This document shows positions 28 through 21,950 of a stretch of 64,000 nucleotides of DNA, one piece after another (position 1 is the first letter of the stretch; each line of letters begins with the position of its first letter). The notes beneath the pieces were generated by a model. That model was not told where the DNA came from. It saw only the letters and a list, made by a program, of their open reading frames with translations, and made no database searches. Source of the DNA: Pseudomonadota bacterium (lineage in GTDB: Bacteria; Pseudomonadota; Gammaproteobacteria; Steroidobacterales; Rariloculaceae); NCBI GenBank assembly GCA_036337035.1, contig JAYZFC010000002.1:16138-80137 (forward strand). The letters are read 5' to 3'. The translations under genes and the position numbers were made by a program.

Positions 28-2094
28 ATGAAAAATATTCATCTCCTTTTCTTATTGTTAACAATATCTGTATCTATTTATGCTCAGGATGACCATGACC
101 ATGATCATGATCATGACCATGACCATGACCATAACTTTAGTGAAGAGGTTATTGTTAGTAGCGTAGGTGAAAGACCTGCTAATGAAATAATTTCTAGTAC
201 CTATAATGTCCCCCACGAATTACTTGATAGAGCAATTAATTCAAATCTTGGTAACATTATTGAAAATGTTGTAGGTGTCAACTCGAGTAATTTTGGTAGA
301 GGCGTTGGCAAGCCTCAAATTAGAGGTTTAGGTGAATATAGGGTTAAAGTTTTAGAAAATGATCTCGCATCTGGTGACATGGCGGACAATGGTGCAGATC
401 ATCCGCATGCTTTTAATGTGCTTGCTTTTTCTAGAATAGAGGTACTAAAAGGCCCTGCTGCTCTAAGATATGGACCGTTCTCTGCTTCTGGTGTTATCAA
501 TATGTTATCAGAATACAAATTAATTGATGAAAATACACCTAGTTTTGGGGATATCATATATGGAAATAGCTCAGTAGCTGATGAAAACTCAATTCACTTT
601 CATTCATTACTTAGAAGTGGTAACTGGTTCTGGGGACTATCTGGTAACAAAAGAAATGGAAAAGACTATAAAATTCCTGGCTTTATGGAGACAGATGCTT
701 TGCATGCAAAACATGAAGATCAAGGAGAAACGGACACTAGAGTGTCAGGTACTGCAAAAAATACGGCGCTTAAAGAAGATGGAGTTAATTTTCATAACAC
801 ATGGTTAAGTAATAACAAAAAATTTACTTATTTTATTAATAGAAGTGAAGCAGGATTTGGTATTCCAGGGCATGAGCATGAGGAGGAAAATGAAAAAGAA
901 GAGTTAATGACTCTTGACATGGATAGAACCAGATATGGTTTTGAATATACTCAAGACATGAGTGGCTTTTTCAATAAATTTTCTTTTAATTCAGCCTTTG
1001 TCGATTATCAACATGCAGAACTAGAGGGTAATAAAGAAGTTTCTATATTTACCAATGATTCTAATAACATAAGAATAGAACTTACTTTTGACGGTTATAA
1101 CGCTCTTCCTGACCAGAAAGATCACCCTCTATCCTTTAATGGAGTTATTGGATTTTCCAACGAAAAAAACAACACAATAATAGCTGGAGAAGAAGCAGGA
1201 TATATCCCAAGCTTTAACCAATCTAGCGAAGCCTTGTACTTTATTCAAAATATAGAACATTCAAATCTTCTTTTTGAAATAGCTGCTCGATTTGAAAATA
1301 ACAAATTAAATCCTAAAGCTATCAATCTTAAAGAGAAAAATAAAAATAATAGTAATTATTCTATTGGAAGTGGTTTAAAGCTCTCAAATAATTCTTTGAT
1401 AGGCGTATCAATTTCAAAAAATTCAAGGGCTCCTAGTATTTCTGAGATTTATGCAGAAGGGGTGCATCATGATGCCGGAATATACGAAAAAGGAAATAGT
1501 TTATTAAAAAATGAAGATTCTATATCTACAGAAATATACTATAGATATAGTAACGATCTTTTTAATTTAAATGCTGCATACTTTAGCAATGACTTTAATA
1601 GCTTTATTTATAGACATATTACTAATATCAAAGTAGGTAAAATACCTGTAATTGAGTATAGGCAAAAAGGTGCAGAAATTTCTGGTACTGAACTTGAAAT
1701 TAGTTTTGATAACATAGCTCTAGGAAACTTTATTGTTTCTCATTCATTGATGATGTCTAAAATTAATGGAAAACTTAATAATGGTGCATACATACCGAGA
1801 ATCCCTCCTCTAAACTTTCAATATACGCTTGATGCAATGTCAGATAATTGGCTATATACACTTAGATATAAATATAGTGACAAACAAGACTCACTTGCTT
1901 TCAATGAAATGCTAACTGATTCTTATAATAGATTAGATTTTGAAGTTAGTTATAAAGCAAGCAATAATATATTTTTTATATTGCTTATGAGAAATATAGG
2001 TGATGAAGATATCAGAAATCATACTTCTTGGTTGAAAGATAAACTGCCAGAGCCTGGTAGAGATTATAATTTATCTGTTCAATATAGCTTCTAG
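28..2094 (+). CDS. TonB-dependent outer-membrane receptor with N-terminal (Asp-His)7 tract
   Basis: 688-aa ORF. Signal peptide MKNIHLLFLLLTISVSIYA/Q. Plug-like N-terminus (EEVIVSS, GKPQIRGLGEYRVKVL, IEVLKGPAALRYG). Barrel-type C-terminus ending NLSVQYSF with terminal aromatic. Confidence 0.85.
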   Translation: MKNIHLLFLLLTISVSIYAQDDHDHDHDHDHDHDHNFSEEVIVSSVGERPANEIISSTYNVPHELLDRAINSNLGNIIENVVGVNSSNFGRGVGKPQIRGLGEYRVKVLENDLASGDMADNGADHPHAFNVLAFSRIEVLKGPAALRYGPFSASGVINMLSEYKLIDENTPSFGDIIYGNSSVADENSIHFHSLLRSGNWFWGLSGNKRNGKDYKIPGFMETDALHAKHEDQGETDTRVSGTAKNTALKEDGVNFHNTWLSNNKKFTYFINRSEAGFGIPGHEHEEENEKEELMTLDMDRTRYGFEYTQDMSGFFNKFSFNSAFVDYQHAELEGNKEVSIFTNDSNNIRIELTFDGYNALPDQKDHPLSFNGVIGFSNEKNNTIIAGEEAGYIPSFNQSSEALYFIQNIEHSNLLFEIAARFENNKLNPKAINLKEKNKNNSNYSIGSGLKLSNNSLIGVSISKNSRAPSISEIYAEGVHHDAGIYEKGNSLLKNEDSISTEIYYRYSNDLFNLNAAYFSNDFNSFIYRHITNIKVGKIPVIEYRQKGAEISGTELEISFDNIALGNFIVSHSLMMSKINGKLNNGAYIPRIPPLNFQYTLDAMSDNWLYTLRYKYSDKQDSLAFNEMLTDSYNRLDFEVSYKASNNIFFILLMRNIGDEDIRNHTSWLKDKLPEPGRDYNLSVQYSF
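88..132 (+). repeat. In-frame hexanucleotide microsatellite (GAY-CAT)n encoding D(DH)7
   Basis: Read directly: GAT GAC CAT GAC CAT GAT CAT GAT CAT GAC CAT GAC CAT GAC CAT. It lies immediately after the predicted signal-peptide cleavage site of the receptor. Confidence 0.9.
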
Positions 2095-2116
2095 ATAATA
2101 ACAATAATATTATTAC

Positions 2117-2635
2117 TTACTTTAGCAGATTGCCTTCATCATCAAGATCTAAGCCAGTCTTTCTTGCTTGATCAAGCACTTTAGCTGGCCAGATCACATG
2201 GCCTGCATCCGTCCCACCTACAATTGTCATCATTAACGCATATTCTTTGCCAATGTTTCTAAAACTTCTCATAACACCTGCAGGAACGGAAACAATATCG
2301 AATGCGTTTAACTCAATTCTATTCTCCTCCTCATCACCCCAAAGTATCTCCCAATTACCTGACATAGCAAAAAAAACTTCTACTGTATCGTGAGAGTGAA
2401 GTGACGCACCTTTTTCTGCATTAGCTCCTATGTAAGTAACATTAAAACCTTCTACTGCTTTAATTGCTGGAGATAAGTTAATATCTTCTGTTACTCCTGA
2501 ACCAATTACAGTGAAAACATCTCTTTCCATGCCTGGAATAAGAGAATCTACAAAGGCTTTTTGCGTTGGCTTTAAATCATCAAAACGAGCTAGACGCTCA
2601 TTCATTTGCTCAGGTGTAAAAGTCTTAGATTTCAT
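2117..2635 (-). CDS. Cupin-domain protein (no export signal)
   Basis: 172 aa. Cupin motif 1 is SLHSHDTVEVFFAMSG (HxHx3E) and the motif 2 region is VPAGVMRSFRN. Its ATG overlaps the TGA of the upstream gene (ATGA at 2632-2635). Confidence 0.7.
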   Translation of the reverse strand: MKSKTFTPEQMNERLARFDDLKPTQKAFVDSLIPGMERDVFTVIGSGVTEDINLSPAIKAVEGFNVTYIGANAEKGASLHSHDTVEVFFAMSGNWEILWGDEEENRIELNAFDIVSVPAGVMRSFRNIGKEYALMMTIVGGTDAGHVIWPAKVLDQARKTGLDLDDEGNLLK

Positions 2636-4698
2636 CTAATTACGTACTCCCATATATTAGTAGCTTGCTCAAGAATAGCAGGTAGATCAGATTCAAGAAG
2701 ATAACCCTCTTCAATCAACTCTTTTGCCTCCTGAGAAAGTAAATCAAGATAGTGATCTAAGTTATCATACCTTTCTTCTACAGAAAGGCGGGGGTCTTCA
2801 TTAGATAATCTAGTTTCCCTATCTTTTGGAAAAGGTAAAAAAGAGCCTGACATATGTGAAACTGTGTCAGTTGGTCCGTAATCAGAATTATATAGATTCC
2901 AACCCGTATATGTTGCTAAAGGAACTATATGACCAAGAGTTTTAAGGCCACCAATTTCATTACCATCCTCATCTACTTGAGGAACAAAAACAGGAAACGC
3001 ATCACTCACTTCTGGTGGCTCTTTAGTGATGACTCCATCAGTTGCAAAAAAAGGTCCATAATCTACTCGGTAAGCTTTATGAGTTTTAGTTGGAAAATTT
3101 ATATTTGGTATTTTAGGAAAATTAACCATATCTGGCTCAACAAGAGTTCCGTCTTTCAAAAGCGGATATCTACTTGGTGGTGCTGGTATATCATTTGCAA
3201 CCCAGTCATTCATCCTTATCAATAGAGCACGCATTAGCCAAGAAAAATCATTTGGATTATTTAAGTTCTGCCCATTTGTCTGTGATGGAGGAAAGTCTGA
3301 AGGCAGATGTTGAGCGCCAGACAAATGATAAACTCTTGAATAATCATCTAGCATAGGTACATCAACTAATCCATCAACTGAAGTAGTTAAAAGCGAAACA
3401 ACCCTACCCCAATATTCATAAGAAGAATTTACATTATATACTTTAGGCATAAATGCTTCTGGTAAATGAGATAACACTCCATCAGTAATTCCAGTTAAAG
3501 GATCGGTTTGCTCAATATCTGTGAATGGAAAAATATCAGTAGGATAAAAGAAATTTAAAAAGGGATGAGCATCTCTTGAAGCTTGTCCAAATCTTAAATT
3601 AAAACTCCCTCTTGCAGCTCCACCAATTTGGGCAATTACTCCATCAAGAGCTTTTCTATTAGACTCATCTTCATTAAAACCCATATAGAGATAAGTCCTT
3701 AGCGTTCTTCCAGGTTGCGACATTCCATACGCAATAATATGATCTATAGAGTTTTCTGAAAGATTTAAGTCAGCTAAGGAGTCATATTTTAGAGCAGAAG
3801 CAGTATCGCGAATTGCAGCAAGACCTAAACCAATAATTTCAGGATTCTCTGATACATATACTACTTCATAAATTAGTTTGGGTTTAAAACCTGAGGACAA
3901 ATAAATTCTATCCATATCAGGAACTACCTTGCCTTGCTCTAATCTTGCAAAGCTCCATTGATCCCTTGCGATAATTCTTCTCTCTCCTTCAACAGAATCT
4001 CTAACAGTTAAAATATTTTCTGGTGAATCAGGATCAGAAACAGAGTATGGGATATGGCCTCTATCAGCCAAAGTCCTATCAAAAACCTCTGAAGTAACAA
4101 CAAAATCACTTCTAACCAAGCCTTCAATTGTATTTTCTGGATCTATTTTAGGAATAAAAATTCTCGATCCTGCTGTTCTACTGGCTGGCACATCAAATTG
4201 CCAACCTACCCAAAATAGAGAAAAACCATTTTCCATTAAAAAACCATCGCCAAAGTCTGACTCTATCGTTGGATTAGCAGCATCCCAATATTCTCCTCCT
4301 GTATAAACAACTCCACCATCGGTTGCATCAGCATGATTAAAAAAAGTTAGCATTCGTCTGGTACCTCGATTAGCAATACCAAGGAGCGTTGTTCCATTAG
4401 ACTTATCCATGTTTTTTGGTTTTAAAAAAGTAAAATTAGCCGAAAACTCAACCATACCTTGGGCGTTTAATGGAGCATATTCGATATCAACAATTTTATG
4501 ATTAACTAGGTTGGCTGGGTCAACTTCAAAAAAAATAGTGCCAAGAAACTTTTCATATGCGCCTGTTTCACCAAACTCATAACTATCAAGAACATCCTCA
4601 TGGATTTCTATATCAAAACCAACAACTTTTGCTTCTATAGTTGTGAATAATGAAAAAAGAAAAAAGAGAAATGTAATTTTTTTGAAATCAAGTTTCAT
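2632..4698 (-). CDS. Secreted uncharacterised protein, alpha/beta-hydrolase-like (tentative); paralogue of 17088..19064
   Basis: 688 aa. Sec signal MKLDFKKITFLFFLFSLFTTIEA/K. Colinear with the 658-aa ORF at 17088..19064; shared blocks are DRGHIPYSV, SQPGRTLRTYLYMGFN vs SQSGRLLRTFLYDGFN, and RLS.EERYDNLDHYL. The Ser sits in a small-x-Ser-x-small context like a nucleophile elbow. Family name is recalled from memory only. Confidence 0.6.
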   Translation of the reverse strand: MKLDFKKITFLFFLFSLFTTIEAKVVGFDIEIHEDVLDSYEFGETGAYEKFLGTIFFEVDPANLVNHKIVDIEYAPLNAQGMVEFSANFTFLKPKNMDKSNGTTLLGIANRGTRRMLTFFNHADATDGGVVYTGGEYWDAANPTIESDFGDGFLMENGFSLFWVGWQFDVPASRTAGSRIFIPKIDPENTIEGLVRSDFVVTSEVFDRTLADRGHIPYSVSDPDSPENILTVRDSVEGERRIIARDQWSFARLEQGKVVPDMDRIYLSSGFKPKLIYEVVYVSENPEIIGLGLAAIRDTASALKYDSLADLNLSENSIDHIIAYGMSQPGRTLRTYLYMGFNEDESNRKALDGVIAQIGGAARGSFNLRFGQASRDAHPFLNFFYPTDIFPFTDIEQTDPLTGITDGVLSHLPEAFMPKVYNVNSSYEYWGRVVSLLTTSVDGLVDVPMLDDYSRVYHLSGAQHLPSDFPPSQTNGQNLNNPNDFSWLMRALLIRMNDWVANDIPAPPSRYPLLKDGTLVEPDMVNFPKIPNINFPTKTHKAYRVDYGPFFATDGVITKEPPEVSDAFPVFVPQVDEDGNEIGGLKTLGHIVPLATYTGWNLYNSDYGPTDTVSHMSGSFLPFPKDRETRLSNEDPRLSVEERYDNLDHYLDLLSQEAKELIEEGYLLESDLPAILEQATNIWEYVIR

Positions 4699-4715
4699 AA
4701 TCTTCCTTTTAATAT

Positions 4716-5834
4716 CTAAATATCTCTACTTAATTTCAATAATCTAATTAAATTACCGCCAAGAATAGCTTCTTTTTCTGAATTATTAAGGAATTGAGAA
4801 TTTAAGATAAGATGCATAGTATCTGGCCAACCTAAAGGCATATCTGTTCCATAAACTACCTGACTTGGTCCCATCTCTGCTACTAGATGACGAAGACCTT
4901 CATCTGAAAAAACCATGGAATCAGCAAAAATTTGTGTCCTCAGGTACTCTCTCGGAGGCTTCTGATTCTTACAGTCATCAGCTTGAATTGGATCATTACC
5001 TATAAATTCCCCAGAAGAATTTCTAGCAGCACCTCCAAATGCATCGCAAGCTACATCTAGCCTTCCAAAATACGAGGGCAAGTAACCTCCTCCATGAGCT
5101 CCACAAATCTTAAGTCCTGGGAAACGGTCAAATGTTCCATCTAAGATAAACCTAGATAGAAGAAAACCCGTTTCAAGAGGATTGCCAACAATATTGCCTA
5201 AATCTCCACTAAAATCTAAGCCACCTTCTTTAACAATATTAACCGCATTCGCTGGATGCATAAAGACTGGCACATCAAGTTCTTCAGCTTTTGCCCAAAA
5301 TGGATCATACTTTTCTGATGCAGGAACTTCTCCCTCAACATGGCCACCAATAGAAGCACCCTTAAAGCCTAAAGTTTTCACAGCATACTCTAGTTGTTCA
5401 GCTGCCAGCTCTGGAAATTGAAGTGCTACAGAAGTCAACGCAACAAATCGATCAGGATAACGCTCTACCCAACGAGCAAATCCTTCATCTTGAACACGAA
5501 TAATATCTCTAGCTAAATCGTAATCTGCTCTATACCACCAGTATTGATTAGCACTAATAACTGAAACATCTATTCCCCACTCATTCATCAAATCAAGTCT
5601 TGATGGCTCCAATAATCTTGGACCTCCAATTCTTCTCTCAAGAGGAGTGCCGTTAATTACATTCTCAACTTCTTTAATTGAAGCATGAGCATGGATATCT
5701 ACAGTTTTAACTCTTTTCCCTGCTATATATATTTCTTTTCTTGTTTGAGAAAAAACAGAAGGAGAGGAAAATGAACCAATAGCACCTACTCCCAAAGCAT
5801 GAAGAAAATGTCGCCTATTTTTAATAATGCTCAT
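4716..5834 (-). CDS. Tat-exported amidohydrolase_2 family metal-dependent hydrolase/decarboxylase-like enzyme
   Basis: 372 aa. Twin-arginine leader KNRRHFLHALGVGAIGSFSSPSVFSQ. Blocks VDIHAHAS (HxH), FMHPAN, AHGGGYLPSY and VYGTDMP. Paralogue of 10144..11208. Confidence 0.75.
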   Translation of the reverse strand: MSIIKNRRHFLHALGVGAIGSFSSPSVFSQTRKEIYIAGKRVKTVDIHAHASIKEVENVINGTPLERRIGGPRLLEPSRLDLMNEWGIDVSVISANQYWWYRADYDLARDIIRVQDEGFARWVERYPDRFVALTSVALQFPELAAEQLEYAVKTLGFKGASIGGHVEGEVPASEKYDPFWAKAEELDVPVFMHPANAVNIVKEGGLDFSGDLGNIVGNPLETGFLLSRFILDGTFDRFPGLKICGAHGGGYLPSYFGRLDVACDAFGGAARNSSGEFIGNDPIQADDCKNQKPPREYLRTQIFADSMVFSDEGLRHLVAEMGPSQVVYGTDMPLGWPDTMHLILNSQFLNNSEKEAILGGNLIRLLKLSRDI

Positions 5835-5837
5835 TAT

Positions 5838-7103
5838 TTATTCTCCTGAAACAATTGGTGGTCCCATAAGAAAATCAGGGTTGGCCCCTTCTCTAGGAGT
5901 AAATTTTTGAACGCCACCTTTATTATCAACTTGGGCTAAATAAACATTACCCTCCTGATCAACACTCATCCCATGAACACCAGCAATGCCTCCAGGATAA
6001 TTACCATAGGATCCCCAAGAATATAGAAAGTTCCCGTCTAGATCATATTTTAAAATCTTATGTGTATTGCGATCAGCAGCCCAAAGATAACCATCCGCGG
6101 TAATATTAAATAAATGAAGATTTCCTACTGGGCCAACATTCCATTCAAAAAGATACTCACCATCTTCAGTAAAGACCTGAATTCTCTGATTAGCCCTATC
6201 ATTTACAAATACTCGATTTGTTTCTGGATCAACCGCAACACCATGGACGTTATTCATATAGCCAGGTCTTGTTTCATTAGGAGGGTTACCAGCTTGACCC
6301 CAAGAAGTTAAATAATTACCATCTTTATCAAACTTAACAATCCTAGTCCCGTTATATCCATCCGCTACTACAAAACTGCCATCAGGAAACCAATCCATGA
6401 AAGCAGGTCTATTAAAATGTGTTTCATCATCACCTGGTTGTCCGTAAGTTCCTATTGTCTGAAGGAGGGTTTTACCATCATTAGTAAATTTATGAATAAC
6501 ATGCTTATGATCATCAACTATCCAAACATTCTTTTCTTCGTCATATGGACTAATAGCTACAAAATGAGGCCTTTGAAGCATAGAATCCCACTGATTCCAA
6601 GCTTCAATTACATTACCTTCTCTATCAAAAACTAAAATACAATATTCCCATTTAGAGTCGACACCAAGTCTGCCTCCACCTTTGATCCAATTAATTACGC
6701 CATCTTCAGCTATATTGCCTGTCCCACCACCACTCGGTAAGCTTGCTCTTGTTGCATTTCTCCATACATTTGTAGGAGGAAATTGCATACTAGGTCCCAC
6801 CTCAGGCAGTCTTCTAGTTCCTGGATTAGAAACATCTGGCAGCAGACCTCTTTGAAGATAAAAAACTCTATCGGGGCTCTGTGCAAAAACACTTTGTCCC
6901 GCTCCAAATGTCCAGCCCTCTGCTCCAGGCAAACCAGAAATGTCTTTTGGCCAATCTATAACAACATCATAAGGGCCAAATGCATCCTGCCCTCCTATTT
7001 CACCAGGAATAGCAGCATAGCTTTGAGAAGCATCCTGTGAATACAAATAATTACTAATAAATAAAAAGCTAATAAAAAATAATATTTTTTTAACCTTGAA
7101 CAT
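5838..7103 (-). CDS. Secreted NHL-repeat beta-propeller protein
   Basis: 421 aa. Signal peptide ending NYLYS/Q. Repeated NHL-like blocks: YNGTRIVKFDKDGNYL, HGVAVDPETNRVFVNDRANQRIQVF, HGMSVDQEGNVYLAQ. Confidence 0.65.
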   Translation of the reverse strand: MFKVKKILFFISFLFISNYLYSQDASQSYAAIPGEIGGQDAFGPYDVVIDWPKDISGLPGAEGWTFGAGQSVFAQSPDRVFYLQRGLLPDVSNPGTRRLPEVGPSMQFPPTNVWRNATRASLPSGGGTGNIAEDGVINWIKGGGRLGVDSKWEYCILVFDREGNVIEAWNQWDSMLQRPHFVAISPYDEEKNVWIVDDHKHVIHKFTNDGKTLLQTIGTYGQPGDDETHFNRPAFMDWFPDGSFVVADGYNGTRIVKFDKDGNYLTSWGQAGNPPNETRPGYMNNVHGVAVDPETNRVFVNDRANQRIQVFTEDGEYLFEWNVGPVGNLHLFNITADGYLWAADRNTHKILKYDLDGNFLYSWGSYGNYPGGIAGVHGMSVDQEGNVYLAQVDNKGGVQKFTPREGANPDFLMGPPIVSGE

Positions 7104-7146
7104 AATTTTTCCCTCTAGATCTAATTTAACTTAATAATTACAGAAT

Positions 7147-8154
7147 TTACTCAAACCCTGCAAACTCAGGATCACAGTTATATTCTTGAATTGAGTATTC
7201 AGGAGTATAGTCAAGTTGCATTGTACCACTCCATGACTCAGCTAAATATTCTGGATCCTCCACAAGAATATCTACATTCATTCTATTACCTTCTTTGTTT
7301 AAATAAAAACGCTCTATAGTATGTTTTTTCGAACCGTTAGGTACACCCCTATCAAATGAAGAACGGTGATCTGCAAATAATACTGTATCAACAACCAATA
7401 CATCATCTTCCCAAAAACCAATCGAGTGTCCCTGATTAGTTCTTTCACCAGCTTCAGGATGACTTCTTCCATCCATATAAATGATTCTTTGGTTATCAAA
7501 AAATTCATTCTTAATGATTATCCTATCGTCCAATATATCAAATTCAGTTAGGTAGATAATCATGCCTCTTAACCAAGTCGGTGTAGGAGGAGGAACACAC
7601 TGAGCAATTGGGCTATGTAATCTATAATCATAGGAGCTCTTTGCTAAGGCAGCTTTGTCAGTCAATGAAGCTTCTGACATCGCCTTAGAGAACTCAATTA
7701 TTGTTGAACCCCTTCCTTTCCAGACCCCTTCAAAACTATCTGTAGTAGAAGTACCAATATAATCGCTCTCATCCTGAATGTATACTGAACCATCAGCTGT
7801 CTGAATATTGATCAACATAACATCATGATCTTGGGGGTCTCTATTTGGATAAGCTGTAGCTTGGACCAAATCACCTTCCTTAAGTAGATCTCTTGACCAG
7901 CCGCTTCTAGTCATAATCATGGTGCTCCCAATCTCTAACGCCCATTCAGCAATATCTCCATTACTATCAGGAGCCTCAACATAAATAGTCACATGAGGAT
8001 TTCTCCAAACATAATTTGTCACTACTCCCTGTAATGTTATTGTCTTAGTCTGATCATAACTAGCATCACTATGATGAGCATTAGATGAAACAACAAAGAA
8101 AAAGCTCAAACAGATAAAAAAACTAAAGAATCTAGTCATAATAACCTCAGCCAA
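7147..8154 (-). CDS. Secreted two-domain protein of unknown function (DUF6152-like N-terminus plus C-x-P-P / DGR-HP domain)
   Basis: 335 aa. Signal ending VVSSNA/HH. N-terminal HHSDASYD...WRNPHVTIYVE block (DUF6152-like, from memory). The C-terminal half (AQCVPPPTP, IIYMDGRSHPE, VDILVEDPEYL) is homologous to 23962..24750. Confidence 0.5.
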   Translation of the reverse strand: MAEVIMTRFFSFFICLSFFFVVSSNAHHSDASYDQTKTITLQGVVTNYVWRNPHVTIYVEAPDSNGDIAEWALEIGSTMIMTRSGWSRDLLKEGDLVQATAYPNRDPQDHDVMLINIQTADGSVYIQDESDYIGTSTTDSFEGVWKGRGSTIIEFSKAMSEASLTDKAALAKSSYDYRLHSPIAQCVPPPTPTWLRGMIIYLTEFDILDDRIIIKNEFFDNQRIIYMDGRSHPEAGERTNQGHSIGFWEDDVLVVDTVLFADHRSSFDRGVPNGSKKHTIERFYLNKEGNRMNVDILVEDPEYLAESWSGTMQLDYTPEYSIQEYNCDPEFAGFE

Positions 8155-8204
8155 TGTTTATTGAATTAAAAATCATATTATAAAAAGTTCAAAATAAAAA
8201 GTTG

Positions 8205-9011
8205 TTATAGTGCATTAAACTGGGCAATCTCAAAATGAATATTATTCATACCTTCAAAAAACATTAGCAAAGTTGTGCTTCCTGGTCGTGCAGGCCTAAT
8301 AACATATGGTTCATAGCCACTTTCCCTAATCCTAGCAACTAAATTATCCATATCATTTACAGAAAAGCCAAAATGATCTAATGAGCGACCTCTACTTGGT
8401 AAAATAGCTTGATCTGTTTCTGAAATATGGATCCAGATTCCTTCATATTTAATTATTTTAAGATCACTTATATCATCTTGAGGATAAGATTCTCCGCCAA
8501 AGATTTCTAAAAACCAATCTCTTAATAATGAACTATTTGTTGTAAATATATGAACATGATGAATGCCCTTATAAGTAGGATGCTCTAACAATTCTACTTT
8601 AGCTCCCCATGGATCTCTAAACATAGCTATCTGATTTGAAAGAATACCTTGCGTCGGTTGTAGCTCAATTGAGGCACCCATGATTTCTGCTTTTTCAAGC
8701 ATTAGAGGGACATTAGGAACTGCGAAACCAAAATGATGGATAGCACCACCCTCAAGAGAACCCGCTAGACCATTGTCTTGCATAGTAGCAATATTCCCAT
8801 GTGAATATGCAACTGAACCCATACCACCAGAAAAATCTCTTAACTCACCACCAAAGAGAGTTTGATACCATTCAGCACTAGCCTCTGGATCTGCTGATCT
8901 TAAGTGAACATGAGTGAAGCTTTGGCTATAAACAGGAAGAGAGCTTGATAAGAAAAAAAATAACAAGCTTGCTTTGAGTAAGCTAGTAATCGAAAAGTAT
9001 GATAAAAACAT
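8205..9011 (-). CDS. Secreted tandem VOC (glyoxalase/bleomycin-resistance/extradiol-dioxygenase) family protein
   Basis: 268 aa. Signal peptide ending SSSLPVYS/Q. Two VOC modules with His contexts THVHLRS, IHHFGFAVPN, HHVHIFT and LDHFGFSVND. Confidence 0.7.
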   Translation of the reverse strand: MFLSYFSITSLLKASLLFFFLSSSLPVYSQSFTHVHLRSADPEASAEWYQTLFGGELRDFSGGMGSVAYSHGNIATMQDNGLAGSLEGGAIHHFGFAVPNVPLMLEKAEIMGASIELQPTQGILSNQIAMFRDPWGAKVELLEHPTYKGIHHVHIFTTNSSLLRDWFLEIFGGESYPQDDISDLKIIKYEGIWIHISETDQAILPSRGRSLDHFGFSVNDMDNLVARIRESGYEPYVIRPARPGSTTLLMFFEGMNNIHFEIAQFNAL

Positions 9012-9220
9012 ATCTTTTACTCCCTATTTAAAAAAACTATATTAAAAAAGATAAATTTAAAAGAATTAATACTGTTATATATATATTGTTTTTAGATTGC
9101 TTTAAAGAAAAATTATTATAATATTTTAATATTAAGTAATGAAGTTTCTTAAAATTATGATAAATTCTTTACAAACATATCAATTTATCTTGTTAATTGA
9201 ATTTTAAGGAGCCATAAACA
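9012..9220. promoter_or_regulatory. Divergent promoter region (longest non-coding stretch in window)
   Basis: 209-nt very AT-rich gap between divergently oriented genes. AAGGAG at 9206..9211 lies 9 nt before ATG 9221. Several TATAAT-like hexamers occur (e.g. 9117..9122), but these are not discriminating in this composition. Confidence 0.5.
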
Positions 9221-10054
9221 ATGATTGAATTTGATGTTTCTGATTATACTAATATTAATCCTGCCCAATATGTAAATGAAAAAAGAAAACTACAAATAGA
9301 GCTACTCAAGCTACAAAAATGGGTGATTTCTCAAAAGAAAAATATAGCAATAGTTTTCGAAGGTCGTGATACAGCGGGTAAGACAGGAAGTATTTCAGTG
9401 CTGTCAAGATACCTAATTCCTTCAAATTTCAGGCTAGTCAAATTTGGTATACCAACAAAAAATGAATCAAGAAACTGGTTTAAGAGGTACGAGAATACAC
9501 TACCCAAAACAGGAGAAATAGTATTTTATGATAGATCTTGGTATACAAGAGCTCTTGTTGAAATTACCCTTGGATACTGTTCAAAATCTCAATATGCATA
9601 CTTTATGAAAAATGTTGTTGAGTGGGAAAAAAAATTAATAAATAAAGACACTACAATAATTAAGTTATATCTCTCGATTAATAAAGATATTCAACAAAAA
9701 AGATTTAAGAAAAGAATTTCTAGTCCTCTTGTTCACTGGAAAGTTAGTCAAACTGATATGAAAATGCTTAGAGAATGGGATTCTTTTACATTCTATAAGA
9801 ATGAAGTATTTAATAGAACTTCTCATAAAAAAGCTCCATGGATTATTTTAAATTCTAATATTAAAATGGTAGCAGTATTAAACGCTTTTAGATATGTCCT
9901 TGACCAATTTGATTACCCGAATAAAAAAATATCTACACCAAGGGCATGGTCAAAGAGTCTTAAAGCATATGAGCTTAAAGTTAACAATGTTTTATTTAGT
10001 AACCTTACATTTGAGCAATATCATGCTCTAAAAGGATTAGAAGATACAGTCTAA
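9221..10054 (+). CDS. ppk2: Polyphosphate kinase 2 family protein
   Basis: 277 aa. P-loop-like FEGRDTAGKTGSI plus PPK2 blocks FYDRSWYTRALVE and KAPWIILNSN. Confidence 0.85.
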   Translation: MIEFDVSDYTNINPAQYVNEKRKLQIELLKLQKWVISQKKNIAIVFEGRDTAGKTGSISVLSRYLIPSNFRLVKFGIPTKNESRNWFKRYENTLPKTGEIVFYDRSWYTRALVEITLGYCSKSQYAYFMKNVVEWEKKLINKDTTIIKLYLSINKDIQQKRFKKRISSPLVHWKVSQTDMKMLREWDSFTFYKNEVFNRTSHKKAPWIILNSNIKMVAVLNAFRYVLDQFDYPNKKISTPRAWSKSLKAYELKVNNVLFSNLTFEQYHALKGLEDTV

Positions 10055-10143: not shown

Positions 10144-11208
10144 ATGTCAAATAGAAGAGAATTTATAAAAAAAATCAGTCATCTTGCAATAGGATTAAAC
10201 CTTCTTGCAGTAAGTTTTAACTTAATAGCTCAGCCTGAAAGGCTAGAGGTTACTCTAAATGGCAGCCGCATAAAAACAATAGATATTCATGCTCACCTTG
10301 TTGTTCCAGAAGTTGCGGACCTTCTTACTAATACAGTATTTAGCGAGATATCATTTGCTCCTTGGCAAGCACTGAGCTCTGACAGAATAGACCTAATGGA
10401 TGAAAGAGGTATTGATGTCCAGGCTCTTTCAATCAATAGATATTGGTGGTATGCAGCTGAACGTGACCTTGCTAGTAGAATTGTAAAGTTACACGACGAA
10501 CATTTAGCAAACTGGGTTAATCAACACCCTAATAGATTTGTTGCACTAAGTTCAGTTGCTCTTCAATACCCTGACCTTGCTGCACAACAATTAGAGTATG
10601 CTATGAATGAACTTGGCCATAAAGGAGCTTCAATAGGAGGACATGTGCTAGGCTCAAATCTTGCTGATCCAAAGTATGATGTATTTTGGGCTAAAGCAGA
10701 AGAATTGCAAGCACCTATCTTTATGCACCCGGATGGAGCTAAAAATGTTATTAAAGAAGGAAGTCTTTCTGGAAGAGGAGAATTAAATAATATAATCGGT
10801 AACCCCCTTGAAACAACTATATTTCTCTCACAGTTAATTTATGGTGGTGTCTTTGATCGGTTCCCTAACTTAAAAGTAGTAGCAGCTCATGGAGGTGGAT
10901 ATATGCCCTCTTACCTTGGTAGATCTGAAGTGGCTTGCCAAGTTAGGCCAAATGCTGACTGCTTAAATGAAAAAAATCCTAGCGACTATCTCAAAGAACA
11001 AATTTTTGTTGATACTATAGTTTTTGATCATGAAGGGTTAAGACATTTAGTAGCGACTGTAGGCTCTAGTCAAGTAGTGTACGGAACTGACGCTCCTTTC
11101 AATTGGCCAGATAGTATTGATACAGTAATGACTTCACCATCATTAAGCGACAGTGAGAAAGAAGCTATATTAGGCGGCAATTTGGGCAGATTATTGAAAA
11201 TAAAATAA
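10144..11208 (+). CDS. Tat-exported amidohydrolase_2 family enzyme (paralogue of 4716..5834)
   Basis: 354 aa. Leader MSNRREFIKKISHLAIGLNLLAVSFNLIAQ. Blocks IDIHAHL, FMHPDG, AHGGGYMPSY, VYGTDAP. Long colinear identity runs with 4716..5834 (e.g. RFVALSSVALQYPDLAAQQLEY vs RFVALTSVALQFPELAAEQLEY). Confidence 0.75.
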   Translation: MSNRREFIKKISHLAIGLNLLAVSFNLIAQPERLEVTLNGSRIKTIDIHAHLVVPEVADLLTNTVFSEISFAPWQALSSDRIDLMDERGIDVQALSINRYWWYAAERDLASRIVKLHDEHLANWVNQHPNRFVALSSVALQYPDLAAQQLEYAMNELGHKGASIGGHVLGSNLADPKYDVFWAKAEELQAPIFMHPDGAKNVIKEGSLSGRGELNNIIGNPLETTIFLSQLIYGGVFDRFPNLKVVAAHGGGYMPSYLGRSEVACQVRPNADCLNEKNPSDYLKEQIFVDTIVFDHEGLRHLVATVGSSQVVYGTDAPFNWPDSIDTVMTSPSLSDSEKEAILGGNLGRLLKIK

Positions 11209-12075: not shown

Positions 12076-13686
12076 ATGATTTTAAAATTGAAGAAATTTT
12101 TTTTTGTTATTTCGCTTACATTTATAGCAATCTTATCTAGTCAGCTTTCATATCAAAAAGAAAATTATCCTGAAAATATAATTATTGGAAAACCAACTAA
12201 TAATTCAATAACGATTAGTATAATGGCTGAAGAAAACACAGCGATCTATATCGATTATGGCCTTGATAAAAGAAACTACACTAATAAAACAGAAATTATA
12301 CATTCCTCAAAAGATCAAACTTCGATATTTAATATAGATAATCTTATACCTAATACTAAATACTATTATAGTGTTAACTATAAAAACTTAGATAATGAAA
12401 AATTTTATGCTGGAGATATAAACTCTTTCTGGACTCAAAGATCTTTAGGCAGTTCATTTACTTTTGGAGTTCAAGGAGACTCCCACCCAGAAAGGCTTTG
12501 TGATGAATCTGGTTGGGGCACGAGTGTATCTGAGAGTCAAAGAATCTCAGGGGAAAGAAGAGGATGTATGTATGATCCAGAATTATATAGAAAAACCTTA
12601 GAAATGGTTGATGAAGACCGTCCAGATCTTTACTTTATGCTTGGCGATGATTTTAGCATTTCTGGATTATTACCAAATTATTTTCAAGGTGATGATAGTG
12701 GGTTCAGTCAAAGTATCGTTGATGATATTTATATTAATCAAAGAAATTTTCTTGGATTAATGGCAAATTCAACGGCACTCTTTCCTATAAATGGAAACCA
12801 TGAAGAGGCTAGGCTATCATTATTAAATACACCACTTCATAATTCTTCAATTTTTGCTGGTAATGCTAGAAAACGATATTTTCCTGTACCAATTCCAAAT
12901 ACATTTTATTCTGGCAATGAAAAACCTATTGAAGGAATCGGCCTACTAGGTGATTATTTTTCATTTACCTGGGGAGATGCATTATTTATATCAATTGACC
13001 CCTACTGGCATTCTCCTAGGATTGCTAAATCAATCGGAAGAATGGGTTCTGGTACTAATCCAGGATCTAGCACTGGTGGTATGAATGCTGGTACAGCAAA
13101 GGAGGATTATAAAATAAAATCATGGAATGAGGTAGAACAGGACTGGATAAGACTAACTCAATCCAGTGGAAATTTCTGGGAGGCAACGATAGGAGATGCT
13201 CAGTATCAATTTTTAAAAAAAACCCTAGAAGAAAGTGATGCAAAATATAAATTTATCTTTACACATCATATTTTTGGGACTGGCCGTGGAGGCATAGAAT
13301 TAGCAACTAAATACGAGTGGGGGGGATATAATAATCAAGGTAAATGGGAGTTTGACCAAAAACGCCCTTCATGGGAGCTTCCAATTCATCAATTACTGGT
13401 AAAACATGATGTTTCAATTGTCTTTCAAGGGCATGATCATTTATTTGCTAAACAAGAACTTGATGGAATTATATATCAATCAGTTCCAAACCCCGCTGAC
13501 CCCGCATATCAAGAAATCAACTTCCAAGCTTATAAAACAGGAGATCTTTTACCAGGTTCAGGATATCTAAATGTAGAAGTTTCTCCTGAAAATGTTAAAG
13601 TAACTTATAAAAGATCATATTTAGATAAAGATGAAACAGACAGTGCAATGCATGGTCAAATCGATTATCAATATACAATAAACTAA
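12076..13686 (+). CDS. Secreted metallophosphoesterase (purple-acid-phosphatase-like)
   Basis: 536 aa with an N-terminal hydrophobic leader. Calcineurin-like motif series GVQGDSHPE (GDxH), MLGDDFS (GDD), NGNHE, FTHH, QGHDH. The N-terminal beta-sandwich-like segment ends TKYYYSV. Confidence 0.8.
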   Translation: MILKLKKFFFVISLTFIAILSSQLSYQKENYPENIIIGKPTNNSITISIMAEENTAIYIDYGLDKRNYTNKTEIIHSSKDQTSIFNIDNLIPNTKYYYSVNYKNLDNEKFYAGDINSFWTQRSLGSSFTFGVQGDSHPERLCDESGWGTSVSESQRISGERRGCMYDPELYRKTLEMVDEDRPDLYFMLGDDFSISGLLPNYFQGDDSGFSQSIVDDIYINQRNFLGLMANSTALFPINGNHEEARLSLLNTPLHNSSIFAGNARKRYFPVPIPNTFYSGNEKPIEGIGLLGDYFSFTWGDALFISIDPYWHSPRIAKSIGRMGSGTNPGSSTGGMNAGTAKEDYKIKSWNEVEQDWIRLTQSSGNFWEATIGDAQYQFLKKTLEESDAKYKFIFTHHIFGTGRGGIELATKYEWGGYNNQGKWEFDQKRPSWELPIHQLLVKHDVSIVFQGHDHLFAKQELDGIIYQSVPNPADPAYQEINFQAYKTGDLLPGSGYLNVEVSPENVKVTYKRSYLDKDETDSAMHGQIDYQYTIN

Positions 13687-13706
13687 TTAATAAGGATTAA
13701 AACATT

Positions 13707-15131
13707 ATGAAAAGTTATAAAAATATTTTATCAATTATTTTGTCAGCTCTATTTTTAATTCCCCTGCTTGCTAAAAGCGGTCCTCAAGATGGAGCATTCC
13801 TTAGAACTGCTCAAATACTTGATGAGCCGAGAGGCTATTGTCTAGATATAGCTGGGTATGGTGAAACCATTCGAACTGAAGCAGCTTTAAGGTTTCATAC
13901 ATGTAAATATAAAGAACTAAATACAGATCAATATTTTGGACTTGGTTCATCAGATCAACAAATCTACGTACCTGCATATGACATCTGCCTTCATGCAACT
14001 AGTATCTCAGAAGGCTCTGAGTTATTTACTCAACCTTGTTCATCGATAGATAATCAAATATGGGATATATTTCCAAATGGTTTTATTAGTCCTGCATCTA
14101 ATCATAATTTATGCATAACAGCAGGAGCTGAATCTCGTAATGTTGGAACTTCTGGTGGTGACTGGTTAATTGATAATTATAGAGCTCGATCTGCTACTCT
14201 TGAGATCTGTGAGAATAACTCTGATTTCCAAGAGCTGCGTTGGGGGTATGATGCTGAACAGGAAAGAAGTTTTACAAACACAATTAGGTTAGGGGTGCCT
14301 GATGATATACAAGATTTAATTAATGAAGGGCCGCCCATGAATCGACCATTAAATGATGTGCTCCAAGGCCTTGAAAGAACCTATACTCCAGACGAATTAG
14401 AGATTACAGAAAATATTGCTTATGGGCCTAAAGAAAGAAATTTACTCAATGTTTATAGAGATTTATATCGAACAAATCGAGAGCCAGTTCCAGTCGTTAT
14501 CTATTTTCATGGTGGTGGCTTTGCAAGAGGTGGATTTGAAACTGCTCCAAATGTTCCTGCATATTTTGCAAGCCTAGGTATGGTCGGAGTCAATGCTACC
14601 TATAGTCTTATACCTGAAGCTAGATGGCCTGATGGGGCTGTTGATGTTGGAGCAGCAGTAAGTTGGGTTAGAGAAAATATTTCTGAATATGGTGGGGATC
14701 CAGAGCAAATTTATGTTATAGGATCATCTGCTGGAGCTCATAATGTCGCAACATATGTGTTTAGACCAGACGTGCTTCCAATAGGTACTCCTGAAGTAGC
14801 TGGTGCAATCCTAATATCTGGAATTTATTCATCTCCCCCGGGAGATGAATTACTATATTTTAGTGATACTATTGGTGATGAAGCTGCTATTATAAATAAT
14901 ATCAAAAGAACTAGCATTCCAACACTCATTGCTATAGCTGATAATGATATCCCTAGGGCAACGAATGACTTCACAAGCATAATTCACGATCTTAATATTA
15001 ATCACGGACATCTGCCTTCATTAATTCTAGTACAAGGACATAATCATACATCCTATACAAGAACGATAGGAACCGCTGATAAATACATGAGTGCTGAAAT
15101 ACTTGATTTTATTCTTAATAATAAAAATTAA
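13707..15131 (+). CDS. Secreted ricin-type lectin domain plus alpha/beta-hydrolase (esterase/lipase, HGGG type)
   Basis: 474 aa with a signal peptide. The N-terminal half has repeated C-containing trefoil-like blocks (YCLDIAG, ICLHATS, LCITAGA) and a Q-x-W (NQIWDI). The C-terminal half has the oxyanion motif YFHGGGF and nucleophile elbow GSSAGAH. Confidence 0.7.
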   Translation: MKSYKNILSIILSALFLIPLLAKSGPQDGAFLRTAQILDEPRGYCLDIAGYGETIRTEAALRFHTCKYKELNTDQYFGLGSSDQQIYVPAYDICLHATSISEGSELFTQPCSSIDNQIWDIFPNGFISPASNHNLCITAGAESRNVGTSGGDWLIDNYRARSATLEICENNSDFQELRWGYDAEQERSFTNTIRLGVPDDIQDLINEGPPMNRPLNDVLQGLERTYTPDELEITENIAYGPKERNLLNVYRDLYRTNREPVPVVIYFHGGGFARGGFETAPNVPAYFASLGMVGVNATYSLIPEARWPDGAVDVGAAVSWVRENISEYGGDPEQIYVIGSSAGAHNVATYVFRPDVLPIGTPEVAGAILISGIYSSPPGDELLYFSDTIGDEAAIINNIKRTSIPTLIAIADNDIPRATNDFTSIIHDLNINHGHLPSLILVQGHNHTSYTRTIGTADKYMSAEILDFILNNKN

Positions 15132-19064: not shown

Positions 19065-20503
19065 TCGCTGTTTCTAAGTGTTTCGATCTGTTGTTTTAGA
19101 GCTAAATAATTTTCTGATTGCTCTTCAGTCAGATCTCCTTCCAATAAGTTGTTATATTCATAAGGATCTGCTTGTAAATCATAAAAATGTTCTTCTAAAT
19201 TATTTCTTAATAATTTATAGCGGTGGTTTCGCATGGCGTAATCTGCTGTTGGTATGCCAATAAAGCCCCCTGGAAACATATCAGCATAAACCCACTCTCG
19301 TTGTGAAGGAGTATTTAAATCTTTTAAGATCGGTAAAAAACTCACAGAGTCTGTTGTCACTTCTTCAGGTACAGCTTCTTCAGGATCAATACCTGCCATT
19401 TCCATAATGGTGGCAAATAAATCAGTAGAATTAACAAGTGCGTCAGAGACACCATTTACAATCCCCGGTCCAGCAACAATCAAGGGCACATTAACACCGC
19501 CTTGATACATAGTCTGTTTAGCGTAATAAGGACGAAATGGTGATGAAACTATTCTTAAGTCTGTCCCATTATCACCCATAAAAATAACATAGGTATTGGC
19601 ACGAACTTCTGCAGATAAAGAATCTAAGATTCGACCGATTTGTGTATCCATAGCTTCAAGCATGGATTGGAAATAATCTGGGTTATCATAGCTAGGTACT
19701 GAATTTCTTCCAAGATGAGAATAATCAGACTGCCAGTGTTCTTCTGGAGAAAGATGCAAAGGGGTATGAGGTAAATTAAGTGCAAACCACAAAAACCAAG
19801 GATTGTCCTCCTGCTCGGCAATCCAATTAATAGCATCGTTTGTTTTATCCACAGGTGCATAACCAACAGTACCAATTACCTCACCATTGACTACCTTATT
19901 CCAAGAAAAATAGTTTTCTGGCGACCCAAAAGGCAAAGTAACAGCATGATCAAAGCCAACCAGATTGGGATGATCAATTCCTCCATTTTTATCATCTCCT
20001 AAGTGCCATTTACCAATTGCTGCAGTTTTGTAATTTAGATGATCATCAAATGCTTTAGGTAAAGTATATTCATCTAAGTCTAGACCTGCACGGGGAATGC
20101 TACTAAGGCTGTCTATTGCTTCTATACCTGAAAGACCTGGTCCTGGCTGATTACGCATACCTGGAGGAGATGGTACTGCCCATGCAGGTAAAGGAGGTGG
20201 ATCATCAAGCTGGAGCCCACCACCAGGACCACCAACAGGACGCCCTATTCCTGTTCTAAAGCCATATCTTCCAGTTAATAAAGTAGCTCTGGTTGGAGAG
20301 CAAACTGGTTGTGTCCAAAAATTATTAAAACGTATGCCTTCATTTGCTAATTGATCAAGGGTTGCTGTTGTTGCTGTGTCATCGCTCAAACCATAAGAGG
20401 CAAGAGTCTCGTTACCCATATCGTCACCGATGATCAATAAGATGTTCGGAGCTGAGTAGCAAAGGTTACTAAAAAAGAAAAGGATACAAAATTTTAATTT
20501 CAT
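19061..20503 (-). CDS. Secreted type I sulfatase, tandem copy A
   Basis: 480 aa. Signal MKLKFCILFFFSNLCYS/A. Metal site IIGDDMG. Formylglycine motif CSPTRATLLTGR. GKWHLG and FMGDNG blocks. Confidence 0.9.
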   Translation of the reverse strand: MKLKFCILFFFSNLCYSAPNILLIIGDDMGNETLASYGLSDDTATTATLDQLANEGIRFNNFWTQPVCSPTRATLLTGRYGFRTGIGRPVGGPGGGLQLDDPPPLPAWAVPSPPGMRNQPGPGLSGIEAIDSLSSIPRAGLDLDEYTLPKAFDDHLNYKTAAIGKWHLGDDKNGGIDHPNLVGFDHAVTLPFGSPENYFSWNKVVNGEVIGTVGYAPVDKTNDAINWIAEQEDNPWFLWFALNLPHTPLHLSPEEHWQSDYSHLGRNSVPSYDNPDYFQSMLEAMDTQIGRILDSLSAEVRANTYVIFMGDNGTDLRIVSSPFRPYYAKQTMYQGGVNVPLIVAGPGIVNGVSDALVNSTDLFATIMEMAGIDPEEAVPEEVTTDSVSFLPILKDLNTPSQREWVYADMFPGGFIGIPTADYAMRNHRYKLLRNNLEEHFYDLQADPYEYNNLLEGDLTEEQSENYLALKQQIETLRNSE

Positions 20504-20509
20504 AATAAT

Positions 20510-21943: not shown

Positions 21944-21950
21944 TAATAAT

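Follow-up and report, generated by a model that had tools for sequence, protein, structure and literature searches.

Do six adjacent genes, five of which encode proteins with export signals, make up one catabolic pathway, or do they share a promoter and a compartment and nothing else? This question is raised by a 64,000-nucleotide stretch of DNA from an uncultured marine gammaproteobacterium of the family Rariloculaceae (GenBank assembly GCA_036337035.1, contig JAYZFC010000002.1, positions 16,138 to 80,137 of the forward strand), here called the window and numbered from its first letter. The genes lie head to tail on the minus strand at 2117-9011, and we number them in the direction of transcription. 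Gene 1 (8205-9011) encodes, by its open reading frame (ORF) call and Pfam matches, an exported tandem VOC (glyoxalase-fold) protein of 268 residues; gene 2 (7147-8139; 7147-8154 and 335 residues for the ORF as called), an exported protein with a DUF6152 domain and a barrel; gene 3 (5838-7103), an exported six-bladed NHL propeller of 421 residues that resembles peptidylamidoglycolate lyase (PAL); gene 4 (4716-5834), an Amidohydro_2 enzyme of 372 residues exported by the twin-arginine (Tat) route; gene 5 (2632-4698), an exported Abhydrolase_10 protein of 688 residues; and gene 6 (2117-2635), a small cytoplasmic Cupin_2 protein of 172 residues. These six genes are a real operon, and the operon is not a fixed six-step pathway. 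The explanation that we favor, and to which we give about an even chance of being right, is a modular periplasmic catabolic system built around a conserved triad: gene 2, the PAL-like lyase of gene 3, and the Abhydrolase_10 protein of gene 5.

A tightly packed operon with a conserved core

With the ORFs as called, genes 1 to 5 are separated by 50, 43, 3, and 17 nucleotides in turn, and genes 5 and 6 overlap by 4 nucleotides. A preliminary description of this DNA, made from the letters alone, had reported six co-oriented genes with this spacing and had assigned a domain to each product. The layout was confirmed on the minus strand, and a Pfam hidden Markov model search placed every product above the curated cut-off of its family (Glyoxalase, 52.5 bits; DUF6152, 89.3; NHL, 42.7; Amidohydro_2, 120; Abhydrolase_10, 103.3; Cupin_2, 32.3). 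The folds had been described correctly; what had been missed was the likeness of the NHL protein to PAL and, in gene 2, a His-His tip and a lipocalin-like barrel. The NCBIfam search added no function for any of the six proteins.

A sequence scan found no terminator-like site inside the six-gene run. The best minus-strand promoter-like site in 1900-9400 (9183-9154; TTGATA-18-CATAAT, 10 of 12 matches) falls upstream of gene 1, in the AT-rich region of 209 nucleotides (9012-9220) between this gene and a divergent PPK2 gene, where the promoter of the operon probably lies; such sites are no commoner in this region than in shuffled sequence, and both the promoter and the terminator scans are statistically uninformative. 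The six genes are probably transcribed as one unit.

Export was judged by hydrophobicity and a -3/-1 heuristic, together with conservation of the signals in orthologues. By these measures, five of the six proteins have signal-peptide-like N termini, four of the Sec type and one of the Tat type, and the cupin has none; the earlier count of exported proteins stands, as does the earlier picture of a tightly packed operon of exported enzymes. Homologues of gene 2 begin with a hydrophobic stretch of variable sequence that ends at an AxA-type site, followed by an invariant AHHS in which cleavage would fall after the Ala. The NHL and Abhydrolase_10 orthologues likewise have AxA-type sites followed by conserved mature sequence. 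Gene 4 has the full set of Tat features, with a twin-arginine motif (NRRHFLHAL), a hydrophobic stretch, and an AxA-type site at which cleavage is predicted after NRRHFLHALGVGAIGSFSSPSVFS and before QT; its orthologues have DRRSFLK, NRREFLK, or DRRTFLK at the corresponding motif. The signal peptide of gene 1 probably ends at VYS, before QSFTHVH, and the orthologue in the metagenome-assembled genome (MAG) TMED78, introduced below, has a clean Sec signal, MTKPKLITLIFFLFLFTCPAFS, which ends at AFS before the same QSFTHVH.

The question of which genes stay together was addressed by two profile scans, one with gene 2 against GTDB, one genome per species (524 relatives, 80 loci fetched), and one with Abhydrolase_10 against JGI metagenomes (538 relatives, 80 loci fetched). 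ORFs were called in all fetched loci, which carry L numbers here, and were then searched with the window proteins. The full six-gene set with a TonB-dependent receptor was found only in the MAG "Gammaproteobacteria bacterium TMED78" (L004), the closest genome to the window operon, and in a metagenome contig almost identical to it (L087). In TMED78, the genes run in the order amidohydrolase paralogue, PPK2, VOC, gene 2, NHL, amidohydrolase, Abhydrolase_10, cupin, and two TonB receptors, with identities to the window of 66% for the VOC protein, 79% for gene 2, 91% for NHL, 95% for the amidohydrolase, 89% for Abhydrolase_10, 93% for the cupin, and 85% for the TonB receptor. These two loci are one lineage, and the full set there is therefore no independent evidence of coupling. 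The idea that the six genes and the receptor are conserved as a unit was not borne out by this comparison.

What recurs beyond this lineage is the triad. Gene 2, NHL, and Abhydrolase_10 follow one another in this order in L001/L002, L003, L005, L006, L009, L013, and L088, among them Candidatus Rariloculaceae MAGs and one MAG with the label Rhodospirillaceae. Compared with the window, identity is 48 to 57% for gene 2, 70 to 75% for NHL, and 62 to 70% for Abhydrolase_10, and a spacer of about 100 nucleotides separates NHL from Abhydrolase_10 at the place that gene 4 occupies in the window. In L003, L005, and L006, a split paralogous set (a small DUF6152 gene, a gene for the C-terminal domain of gene 2, and an NHL gene) lies divergently beside the fused one. 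Smaller combinations recur as well: NHL immediately precedes Abhydrolase_10 in L089, L106, and L125 too, and in L089 a cupin orthologue (E = 2e-44) comes after Abhydrolase_10; NHL is paired with the amidohydrolase in L038; in L086 and L090, the distance between the amidohydrolase and Abhydrolase_10 is 2 to 2.3 kb; and among loci anchored on NHL, genes for DUF6152 or the C-terminal domain adjoin two of four distant orthologues (60 to 69% identity).

Two other neighbors were seen around these genes. A protein of the metallo-beta-lactamase (MBL) fold (Lactamase_B, about 485 to 540 residues) adjoins the PAL-like NHL gene in three of the four distant NHL-anchored loci (L167, L169, and L170), and this family is the third commonest in the DUF6152 two-domain loci, after DUF6152 and NHL themselves (19 genes in 16 of 80 loci). 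In a Rariloculaceae-like MAG (L003:17777-19757), genes for YHYH and for SCO1/SenC, which are copper-handling proteins, lie about 3 to 5 kb downstream of the triad, beside two more NHL-type genes.

The PAL-like propeller

The second-best PDB relative of gene 3 is the catalytic core of rat PAL (3FVZ; phmmer E = 3.9e-20 over 189 residues). The HMMER alignment pairs H585, Y654, H690, and R706 of the rat enzyme with H180, Y250 (in ADGYNGTR), H287, and R303 (in NDRANQR) of gene 3, and a segment alignment gives H377 as the counterpart of rat H786. The spacing of these residues is 70/37/16/74 in gene 3 and 69/36/16/80 in the rat enzyme, and none of the five is less than 90% conserved among 30 members of the gene 3 family, down to 24% identity. 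Every sequence feature of PAL for which we looked was found in gene 3, namely homology to the NHL propeller, the three His that ligate Zn, and the catalytic Tyr and Arg, and several orthologues carry the name peptidylamidoglycolate lyase in the JGI annotation. The active bacterial enzyme ExiPAL has the same residue set (H95, H210, H309, Y178, and R225), and according to the same paper it is unclear what bacterial PALs do in nature (PMC10900485).

Set beside PAL (EC 4.3.2.5), as represented by the lyase domain of animal PAM (3FVZ) and by ExiPAL, gene 3 shares the six-bladed NHL propeller and the three His, the Tyr, and the Arg at near-equal spacing. Both the animal enzyme and the gene 3 product are extracytoplasmic, the former in the secretory pathway and the latter in the periplasm. 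Unlike PAL, however, gene 3 has no PHM copper monooxygenase domain or gene alongside (no Cu2_monooxygen-type domain was found among the Pfam matches of the operon), and it has an extra N-terminal region of about 150 residues; its operon partners are a DUF6152-barrel protein and a serine hydrolase. The propeller also gives weak matches to the SGL and Lactonase Pfam models, and some orthologues are named "sugar lactone lactonase YvrE" by JGI. Going by the active-site residues, it seems likely that gene 3 encodes a lyase that splits carbinolamide-type C-N, possibly C-O, bonds.

The DUF6152-barrel protein

The start codon of gene 2 is most likely the ATG at 8139 and not the TTG at 8154, because GAGG stands 7 nucleotides upstream of this ATG, and because the corresponding residue, M6, is invariant in 21 homologues. 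With this start, the gap between gene 1 and gene 2 is therefore 65 nucleotides, not 50. The protein belongs to the DUF6152 family (PF19649) by a score far over the cut-off of 27 bits, although the match covers residues 22 to 110 only; the remaining 200 or so residues form a separate C-terminal domain. For this domain (7150-7743, minus strand), no Pfam model was found even at an E value of up to 10, and relaxed searches with the separate domains gave nothing new.

The predicted cleavage after SNA and before HHS puts His-His-Ser at the mature N terminus. Invariant among the 21 homologues are H27, H28, S29, N52-P53-H54, W71, and E74 in the first half of the protein and C186, C327, E217, D220, R223, R230, and H232 in the second, with H243 nearly invariant. 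The two His straight after the AxA site are near-universal among the DUF6152 domains of the fetched loci. In a Foldseek search with the AlphaFold2 model (predicted local distance difference test [pLDDT] score of 86), the first domain matched oligonucleotide/oligosaccharide-binding (OB) folds, including SSB, PriB, and the anticodon domain of LysRS, and the second matched CRABP/FABP/CRBP barrels (CRABP2, FABP5, and CRBP1) with a probability of 1.0 and template modeling (TM) scores to the target of 0.52 to 0.65. A PDB sequence search with the family profile gave no match to any solved protein. In a library of 1.84 billion representatives, the C-terminal domain matches 3,922 clusters of 50% identity at an E value of up to 1e-3, and it occurs fused to DUF6152 (about 330 to 350 residues), alone (about 220 to 265 residues), and doubled (about 450 to 530 residues).

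With an invariant His in first place after a predicted AxA site, gene 2 may resemble, in the position of this residue, proteins with a histidine brace, an N-terminal His metal site made by signal peptidase (lytic polysaccharide monooxygenases, CopC, YcnI, and PmoB). Gene 2, in contrast, has an OB domain and two consecutive His, whereas those proteins have an immunoglobulin-like or cupredoxin-like sandwich, and with its OB-like fold and no sequence match to solved proteins, it was not taken to be a histidine-brace protein by fold or homology. The C-terminal domain superimposes on the barrels of FABP, CRABP, CRBP, and the lipocalins (the calycin fold), yet with 12 to 16% identity and no sequence similarity. 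It also differs from the lipid-binding barrels in being periplasmic, in having a Cys pair (C186 and C327) as well as charged and His residues (E217, D220, R223, R230, and H232), and in its fusion to an OB domain. The gene 2 protein would hold a ligand and is probably metal dependent; the conserved His-His terminus is the putative site of metal binding.

Most paralogues of gene 2 stand in tandem arrays of their own kind. In the MAG Ww577, labelled Rhodospirillaceae, one locus (L063:1-13606) has 11 DUF6152 copies in about 13 kb, both two-domain and split genes, and large arrays are also found in L062, L083, and L066. At least eight separate loci among the best 80 gene 2 loci come from Ww577.

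The Abhydrolase_10 protein

Gene 5 belongs to Abhydrolase_10 (PF20091), with a cut-off of 23 bits, and consists of an N-terminal beta-rich domain and an alpha/beta-hydrolase domain. Its nucleophile elbow reads G325-M-S327-Q-P-G330-R, of which G325-x-S327-Q-x-G330-R is invariant in the family, as is H464. In the AlphaFold2 model (pLDDT, 86.4; predicted TM score, 0.89), S327 sits between a strand (residues 320 to 326) and a helix (residues 328 to 338). The protein is highly conserved, with identities of 50% or more in Gammaproteobacteria, Acidobacteria, and Gemmatimonadota; 3,452 matches were found. We take it for a serine hydrolase, probably with esterase or amidase activity.

No PDB sequence relative of gene 5 was found, and an exact look-up of the window's protein returned no record. 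Foldseek gave weak matches to a CE15 glucuronoyl esterase (E = 3e-4), to MHETase, and to CE7, at TM scores of 0.2 to 0.3, and because these are weak we have not assigned the protein to CE15 or to any other named esterase family. Literature searches on DUF6152, Abhydrolase_10, and PF20091 returned no papers, and one on PAL, NHL, and periplasm returned irrelevant ones only.

Partners outside the triad

The closest PDB relatives of gene 4 are ACMSD (3e-29) and LigW (1e-25), with the gamma-resorcylate and salicylate decarboxylases also among them, and its match to Amidohydro_2 (cut-off, 26.4 bits) is full length. The HxH motif (DIHAHA) can be read straight from the sequence, and H193, H247, R258, and D331 are invariant in nine relatives, R258 being the Arg 11 residues past the catalytic His. 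Gene 4 thus has the family match, the metal ligands, and the catalytic His of an ACMSD-type decarboxylase. It shares the HxH, His, His, Asp, and the Arg 11 residues after the catalytic His with the branch formed by ACMSD, LigW, and gamma-resorcylate decarboxylase, a branch that also holds hydratases (LigJ) and hydrolases. It differs from that branch, whose characterized members are, as far as is known, cytoplasmic, in being Tat exported, and it is only about 25 to 30% similar to any solved enzyme. Gene 4 is a putative decarboxylase or hydratase, for which a carboxylated intermediate is the candidate substrate.

Genes 1 and 6 are the least conserved partners in the operon. Gene 1 is the fastest-evolving member and was lacking from all related loci other than those of the TMED78 lineage. 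Its Pfam matches, to Glyoxalase and Glyoxalase_4, make it a generic VOC protein only. It scores 23.8 bits against TIGR03211 (catechol 2,3-dioxygenase), whose cut-off is 320, and 21.5 bits against HpaD, whose cut-off is 321, and its sole PDB match is a glyoxalase-family protein of 126 residues (E = 0.007). With these scores, and with no significant dioxygenase among its PDB relatives, it was rejected as a type I extradiol dioxygenase. Gene 6, a generic cupin by its relatives, has no hydrophobic N terminus and gives a weak PDB match to the C-terminal cupin of quercetin 2,3-dioxygenase (E = 1e-3).

The convergent receptor

A TonB-dependent receptor (28-2094, plus strand; Pfam Plug and TonB_dep_Rec_b-barrel) faces the end of the operon. 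The preliminary description had the operon converging on this receptor; the orientation is indeed convergent, and the receptor is therefore not co-transcribed with the operon, whereas the implied functional tie is probably incidental. The top NCBIfam model of the receptor is ZnuD (NF038289), at 197.8 bits against a cut-off of 950, too low a score to make it a member of that family, and a (DH)7 tract, DDHDHDHDHDHDHDHN, follows its signal peptide directly. In TMED78, a second receptor with 60% identity adjoins the first. The receptor is syntenic in TMED78 and L087 only, and no TonB receptor stands beside the triad outside this lineage. Convergent as it is, and absent from every such triad locus, it was rejected as a part of the system; it is probably a metal importer and a mere neighbor of the operon. 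Like polysaccharide utilization loci and similar TonB-linked periplasmic catabolic loci, the window has exported hydrolytic enzymes next to an outer-membrane receptor. Unlike them, it has no SusD partner or regulator, and its receptor is convergent, ZnuD-like, and not conserved with the core genes. The 22-nucleotide spacer between the receptor and cupin genes (2095-2116) includes a perfect AT-only palindrome, AATAATATTATT, and holds no G+C-rich terminator hairpin.

Paralogues in the window

Parts of the operon occur again within the window. A paralogue of gene 4 (10144-11208, plus strand; 52% identity) has a Tat signal of its own (NRREFIKK) and is syntenic in TMED78. An Abhydrolase_10 paralogue of gene 5 (17088-19064, minus strand; 41% identity) is the last gene of an operon with three sulfatase genes (19061-23420). 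For the C-terminal domain of gene 2, the paralogue (23962-24750, plus strand; 31% over 160 residues, E = 2e-14) is exported, stands alone, and lies beside a DoxX gene; a reading of it as a second VOC gene was rejected, as it is unrelated to the VOC protein. No other copies of operon components turned up when all window ORFs were searched with phmmer. The recurrence that the preliminary description had seen is thus real, with three components involved (the amidohydrolase, Abhydrolase_10, and the C-terminal domain of gene 2) instead of the two it had counted, and its notion of a modular toolkit gains support from these paralogues and from the loci in other genomes.

The operon that holds the gene 5 paralogue (17088-23420, minus strand) is tight, with gaps of 7 and 6 nucleotides and then a 4-nucleotide overlap, and at least one Abhydrolase_10 member is therefore linked to sulfated substrates.

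Proposed function and alternatives

No characterized pathway or family-level function for the set was found in Pfam, in NCBIfam, in PDB searches by sequence and by fold, or in the literature, in agreement with the earlier statement that no pathway that could be named matches it. Nor was any described system found that combines the parts of this operon, whose kin are periplasmic catabolic operons and bacterial PAL-like enzymes. We imagine that the gene 2 barrel would hold a partly hydrophobic ligand and that its His-His terminus, made by signal peptidase, would bind a metal; that the PAL-like lyase would cleave a carbinolamide-type C-N (or C-O) bond to yield an amide and glyoxylate or an analogous carbonyl; and that the Abhydrolase_10 protein would hydrolyze an ester or amide. 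In the window lineage, the Tat amidohydrolase, inserted between the lyase and the hydrolase, may decarboxylate or hydrate a carboxylated intermediate, the exported tandem VOC protein would have been added at the front of the operon, and the cytoplasmic cupin, added at its end, might act on an imported product. Overall, one can envision the stepwise dismantling, in the periplasm, of a partly hydrophobic compound of dissolved organic matter with ester or amide links. Each of these reactions is conjectural, as is the order of the steps, and our confidence in any specific order is much lower than in the general reading.

A number of observations weigh against this interpretation. The substrates and activities named here for the operon enzymes are candidates only. 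The arrangement of all six genes could be confirmed in close relatives alone and therefore tells little about whether the VOC protein, the amidohydrolase, and the cupin are functionally coupled. None of the operon partners accompanies Abhydrolase_10 in about 65 of the 80 metagenome loci (44 to 52% identity, largely soil), and most of the 80 DUF6152 two-domain loci are without NHL and Abhydrolase_10; their neighbors are a mixture of MBL-fold proteins, sulfatases, Ldh_2, GFO/IDH/MocA, aldo-keto reductases, S41 peptidases, and parts of TRAP and TTT transporters (DctP/TctC). Three of the components also have paralogues in different settings within the window. An oxidase that could make the hydroxylated type of substrate on which PAL acts is lacking. 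The model of gene 2 is unsure at the very His region of interest (pLDDT below 50 for residues 19 to 28), the fold matches of gene 5 are weak, and the export calls come from a heuristic and from conservation of the signals.

Some of these points would be expected if the genes were a co-transcribed shelf of independent exported enzymes, with a common promoter and compartment, different substrates, and no shared pathway. Beyond the close relative, synteny holds for just three of the six genes, and components are found with other partners, Abhydrolase_10 with three sulfatases, an amidohydrolase alone beside PPK2, and the barrel domain beside DoxX. The heterogeneity of the DUF6152-family neighbors points the same way, and the window at large is rich in exported hydrolases, with five sulfatases, an esterase with a ricin lectin domain, a metallophosphatase, and a CBM9 protein. 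Against such a shelf, the order of the triad is held across lineages that are 40 to 50% diverged in sequence, and the triad recurs in split paralogous form. The 3-nucleotide gap and the 4-nucleotide overlap, moreover, are the same in the window and in TMED78, and their preservation suggests translational coupling. NHL (at least 60% identity across phyla) and Abhydrolase_10 (at least 50%) are also under unusually strong constraint. Independence of the genes is the main rival of the favored reading, and we consider it rather unlikely.

The remaining alternatives each give the operon a more specific task. Were it devoted to carbohydrate side chains or uronates on sulfated or esterified polysaccharide fragments, gene 5 would be an esterase, the propeller and the amidohydrolase would be sugar lactonases, and the cupin would be a sugar or keto-uronate isomerase. 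The top PDB folds of Abhydrolase_10 are indeed CE15 glucuronoyl and CE7 acetyl-xylan esterases, its paralogue in the window shows translational coupling with three sulfatases, 10 of 80 loci with DUF6152 two-domain genes have sulfatases nearby, and the propeller has its SGL/Lactonase matches and YvrE names. These fold matches, however, do not go beyond the poor scores given above, the propeller retains the His, Tyr, and Arg set of PAL, whereas SMP30-type lactonases use carboxylate ligands, the nearest solved relatives of the amidohydrolase are decarboxylases (ACMSD and LigW) and not LigI or fuconolactonase-type lactonases, and the operon is without a glycoside hydrolase, a polysaccharide lyase, or SusD; we find this role improbable. 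Aromatic ring cleavage and decarboxylation in the periplasm, the chemistry with which the preliminary description had framed these folds, would call for a VOC extradiol dioxygenase, a decarboxylase of the ACMSD/LigW type, a cupin dioxygenase, and a hydrolase of meta-cleavage products. The decarboxylases nearest to gene 4 fit such a scheme, as do the weak matches of the VOC protein to catechol 2,3-dioxygenase and HpaD models and of the cupin to quercetin 2,3-dioxygenase. Yet the VOC scores lie more than an order of magnitude under their cut-offs, the VOC gene is confined to the TMED78 lineage and only one further locus has the cupin, the cupin is cytoplasmic and its partners exported, no ring-hydroxylating oxygenases, dehydrogenases, or regulators are found, and the conserved core has no place in known meta-cleavage pathways. 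The framing thus finds little support, and we regard ring cleavage as very improbable. Metal handling tied to the ZnuD-like receptor, with the His-His OB protein as a metallochaperone or metal buffer for adjacent Zn enzymes, is suggested by the invariant His-His terminus and NPH motif of gene 2, by the (DH)7 tract of the receptor, and by the SCO1 and YHYH genes about 7 kb from the triad in L003; CusF is a small periplasmic metallochaperone that is itself OB-like. The receptor, in contrast, is syntenic only in TMED78, tandem expansions as large as the 11 copies in L063 and fusion to a ligand-binding barrel are untypical of a metallochaperone, and stand-alone paralogues of the barrel are without the His residues. 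Of all the explanations considered, this is the one to which we attach the least credence.

Returning to the favored reading, a modular periplasmic system around the triad, we can also imagine a bolder form of it, modeled by analogy on PHM and PAL. A DUF6152-barrel metalloprotein, with copper or another redox metal at the His-His terminus and an organic ligand in the barrel, would oxidize a C-H bond next to N or O, the PAL-like Zn lyase would split the resulting carbinolamide, and Abhydrolase_10 would process the amide or ester. We see this as a long shot. If true, it would supply a natural function for bacterial PALs and a new periplasmic route for stripping N and C from dissolved organic matter, and it would make the DUF6152-plus-barrel proteins a large family of periplasmic metalloproteins not described before.

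Short of that, the locus sets a PAL-like lyase in a recurring context, with a His-His OB-barrel partner and a widespread uncharacterized Abhydrolase_10 protein, all three exported to the periplasm, and the C-terminal barrel of gene 2 brings to light a large domain family for which Pfam has no model. We rate the lead as moderately interesting, chiefly in view of the lack of any known natural role for bacterial PALs. Should the partnership be functional, these genes would be clonable candidates for the processing of organic matter outside the cytoplasm by uncultured marine and soil bacteria; should it not be, the locus would be one more unannotated operon of secreted enzymes.

Other features of the window

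Just past the operon, at 12076-15131 (plus strand), are genes for a purple-acid-phosphatase-like metallophosphoesterase and for an esterase fused to a ricin-B lectin domain, both exported, which fit a region specialized in extracytoplasmic degradation. Two more sulfatases lie at 28115-29776 and 29822-31522.

Selenocysteine machinery is also encoded, with SelB and SelA adjacent (42059-43594 and 43594-44982, both minus strand), and a 742-residue protein encoded at 36944-39172 (plus strand) joins a pyridine-nucleotide-disulfide oxidoreductase to AIRS/AIRS_C (SelD-like) domains. It is probable that selenoproteins are produced in this organism, and some in-frame TGA codons of the genome may therefore be read through. 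Directly ahead of the SelD-like fusion, at 33758-36943 (plus strand), an ORF of 1,061 residues combines a major facilitator superfamily transporter domain with a spermidine/spermine-synthase-like domain.

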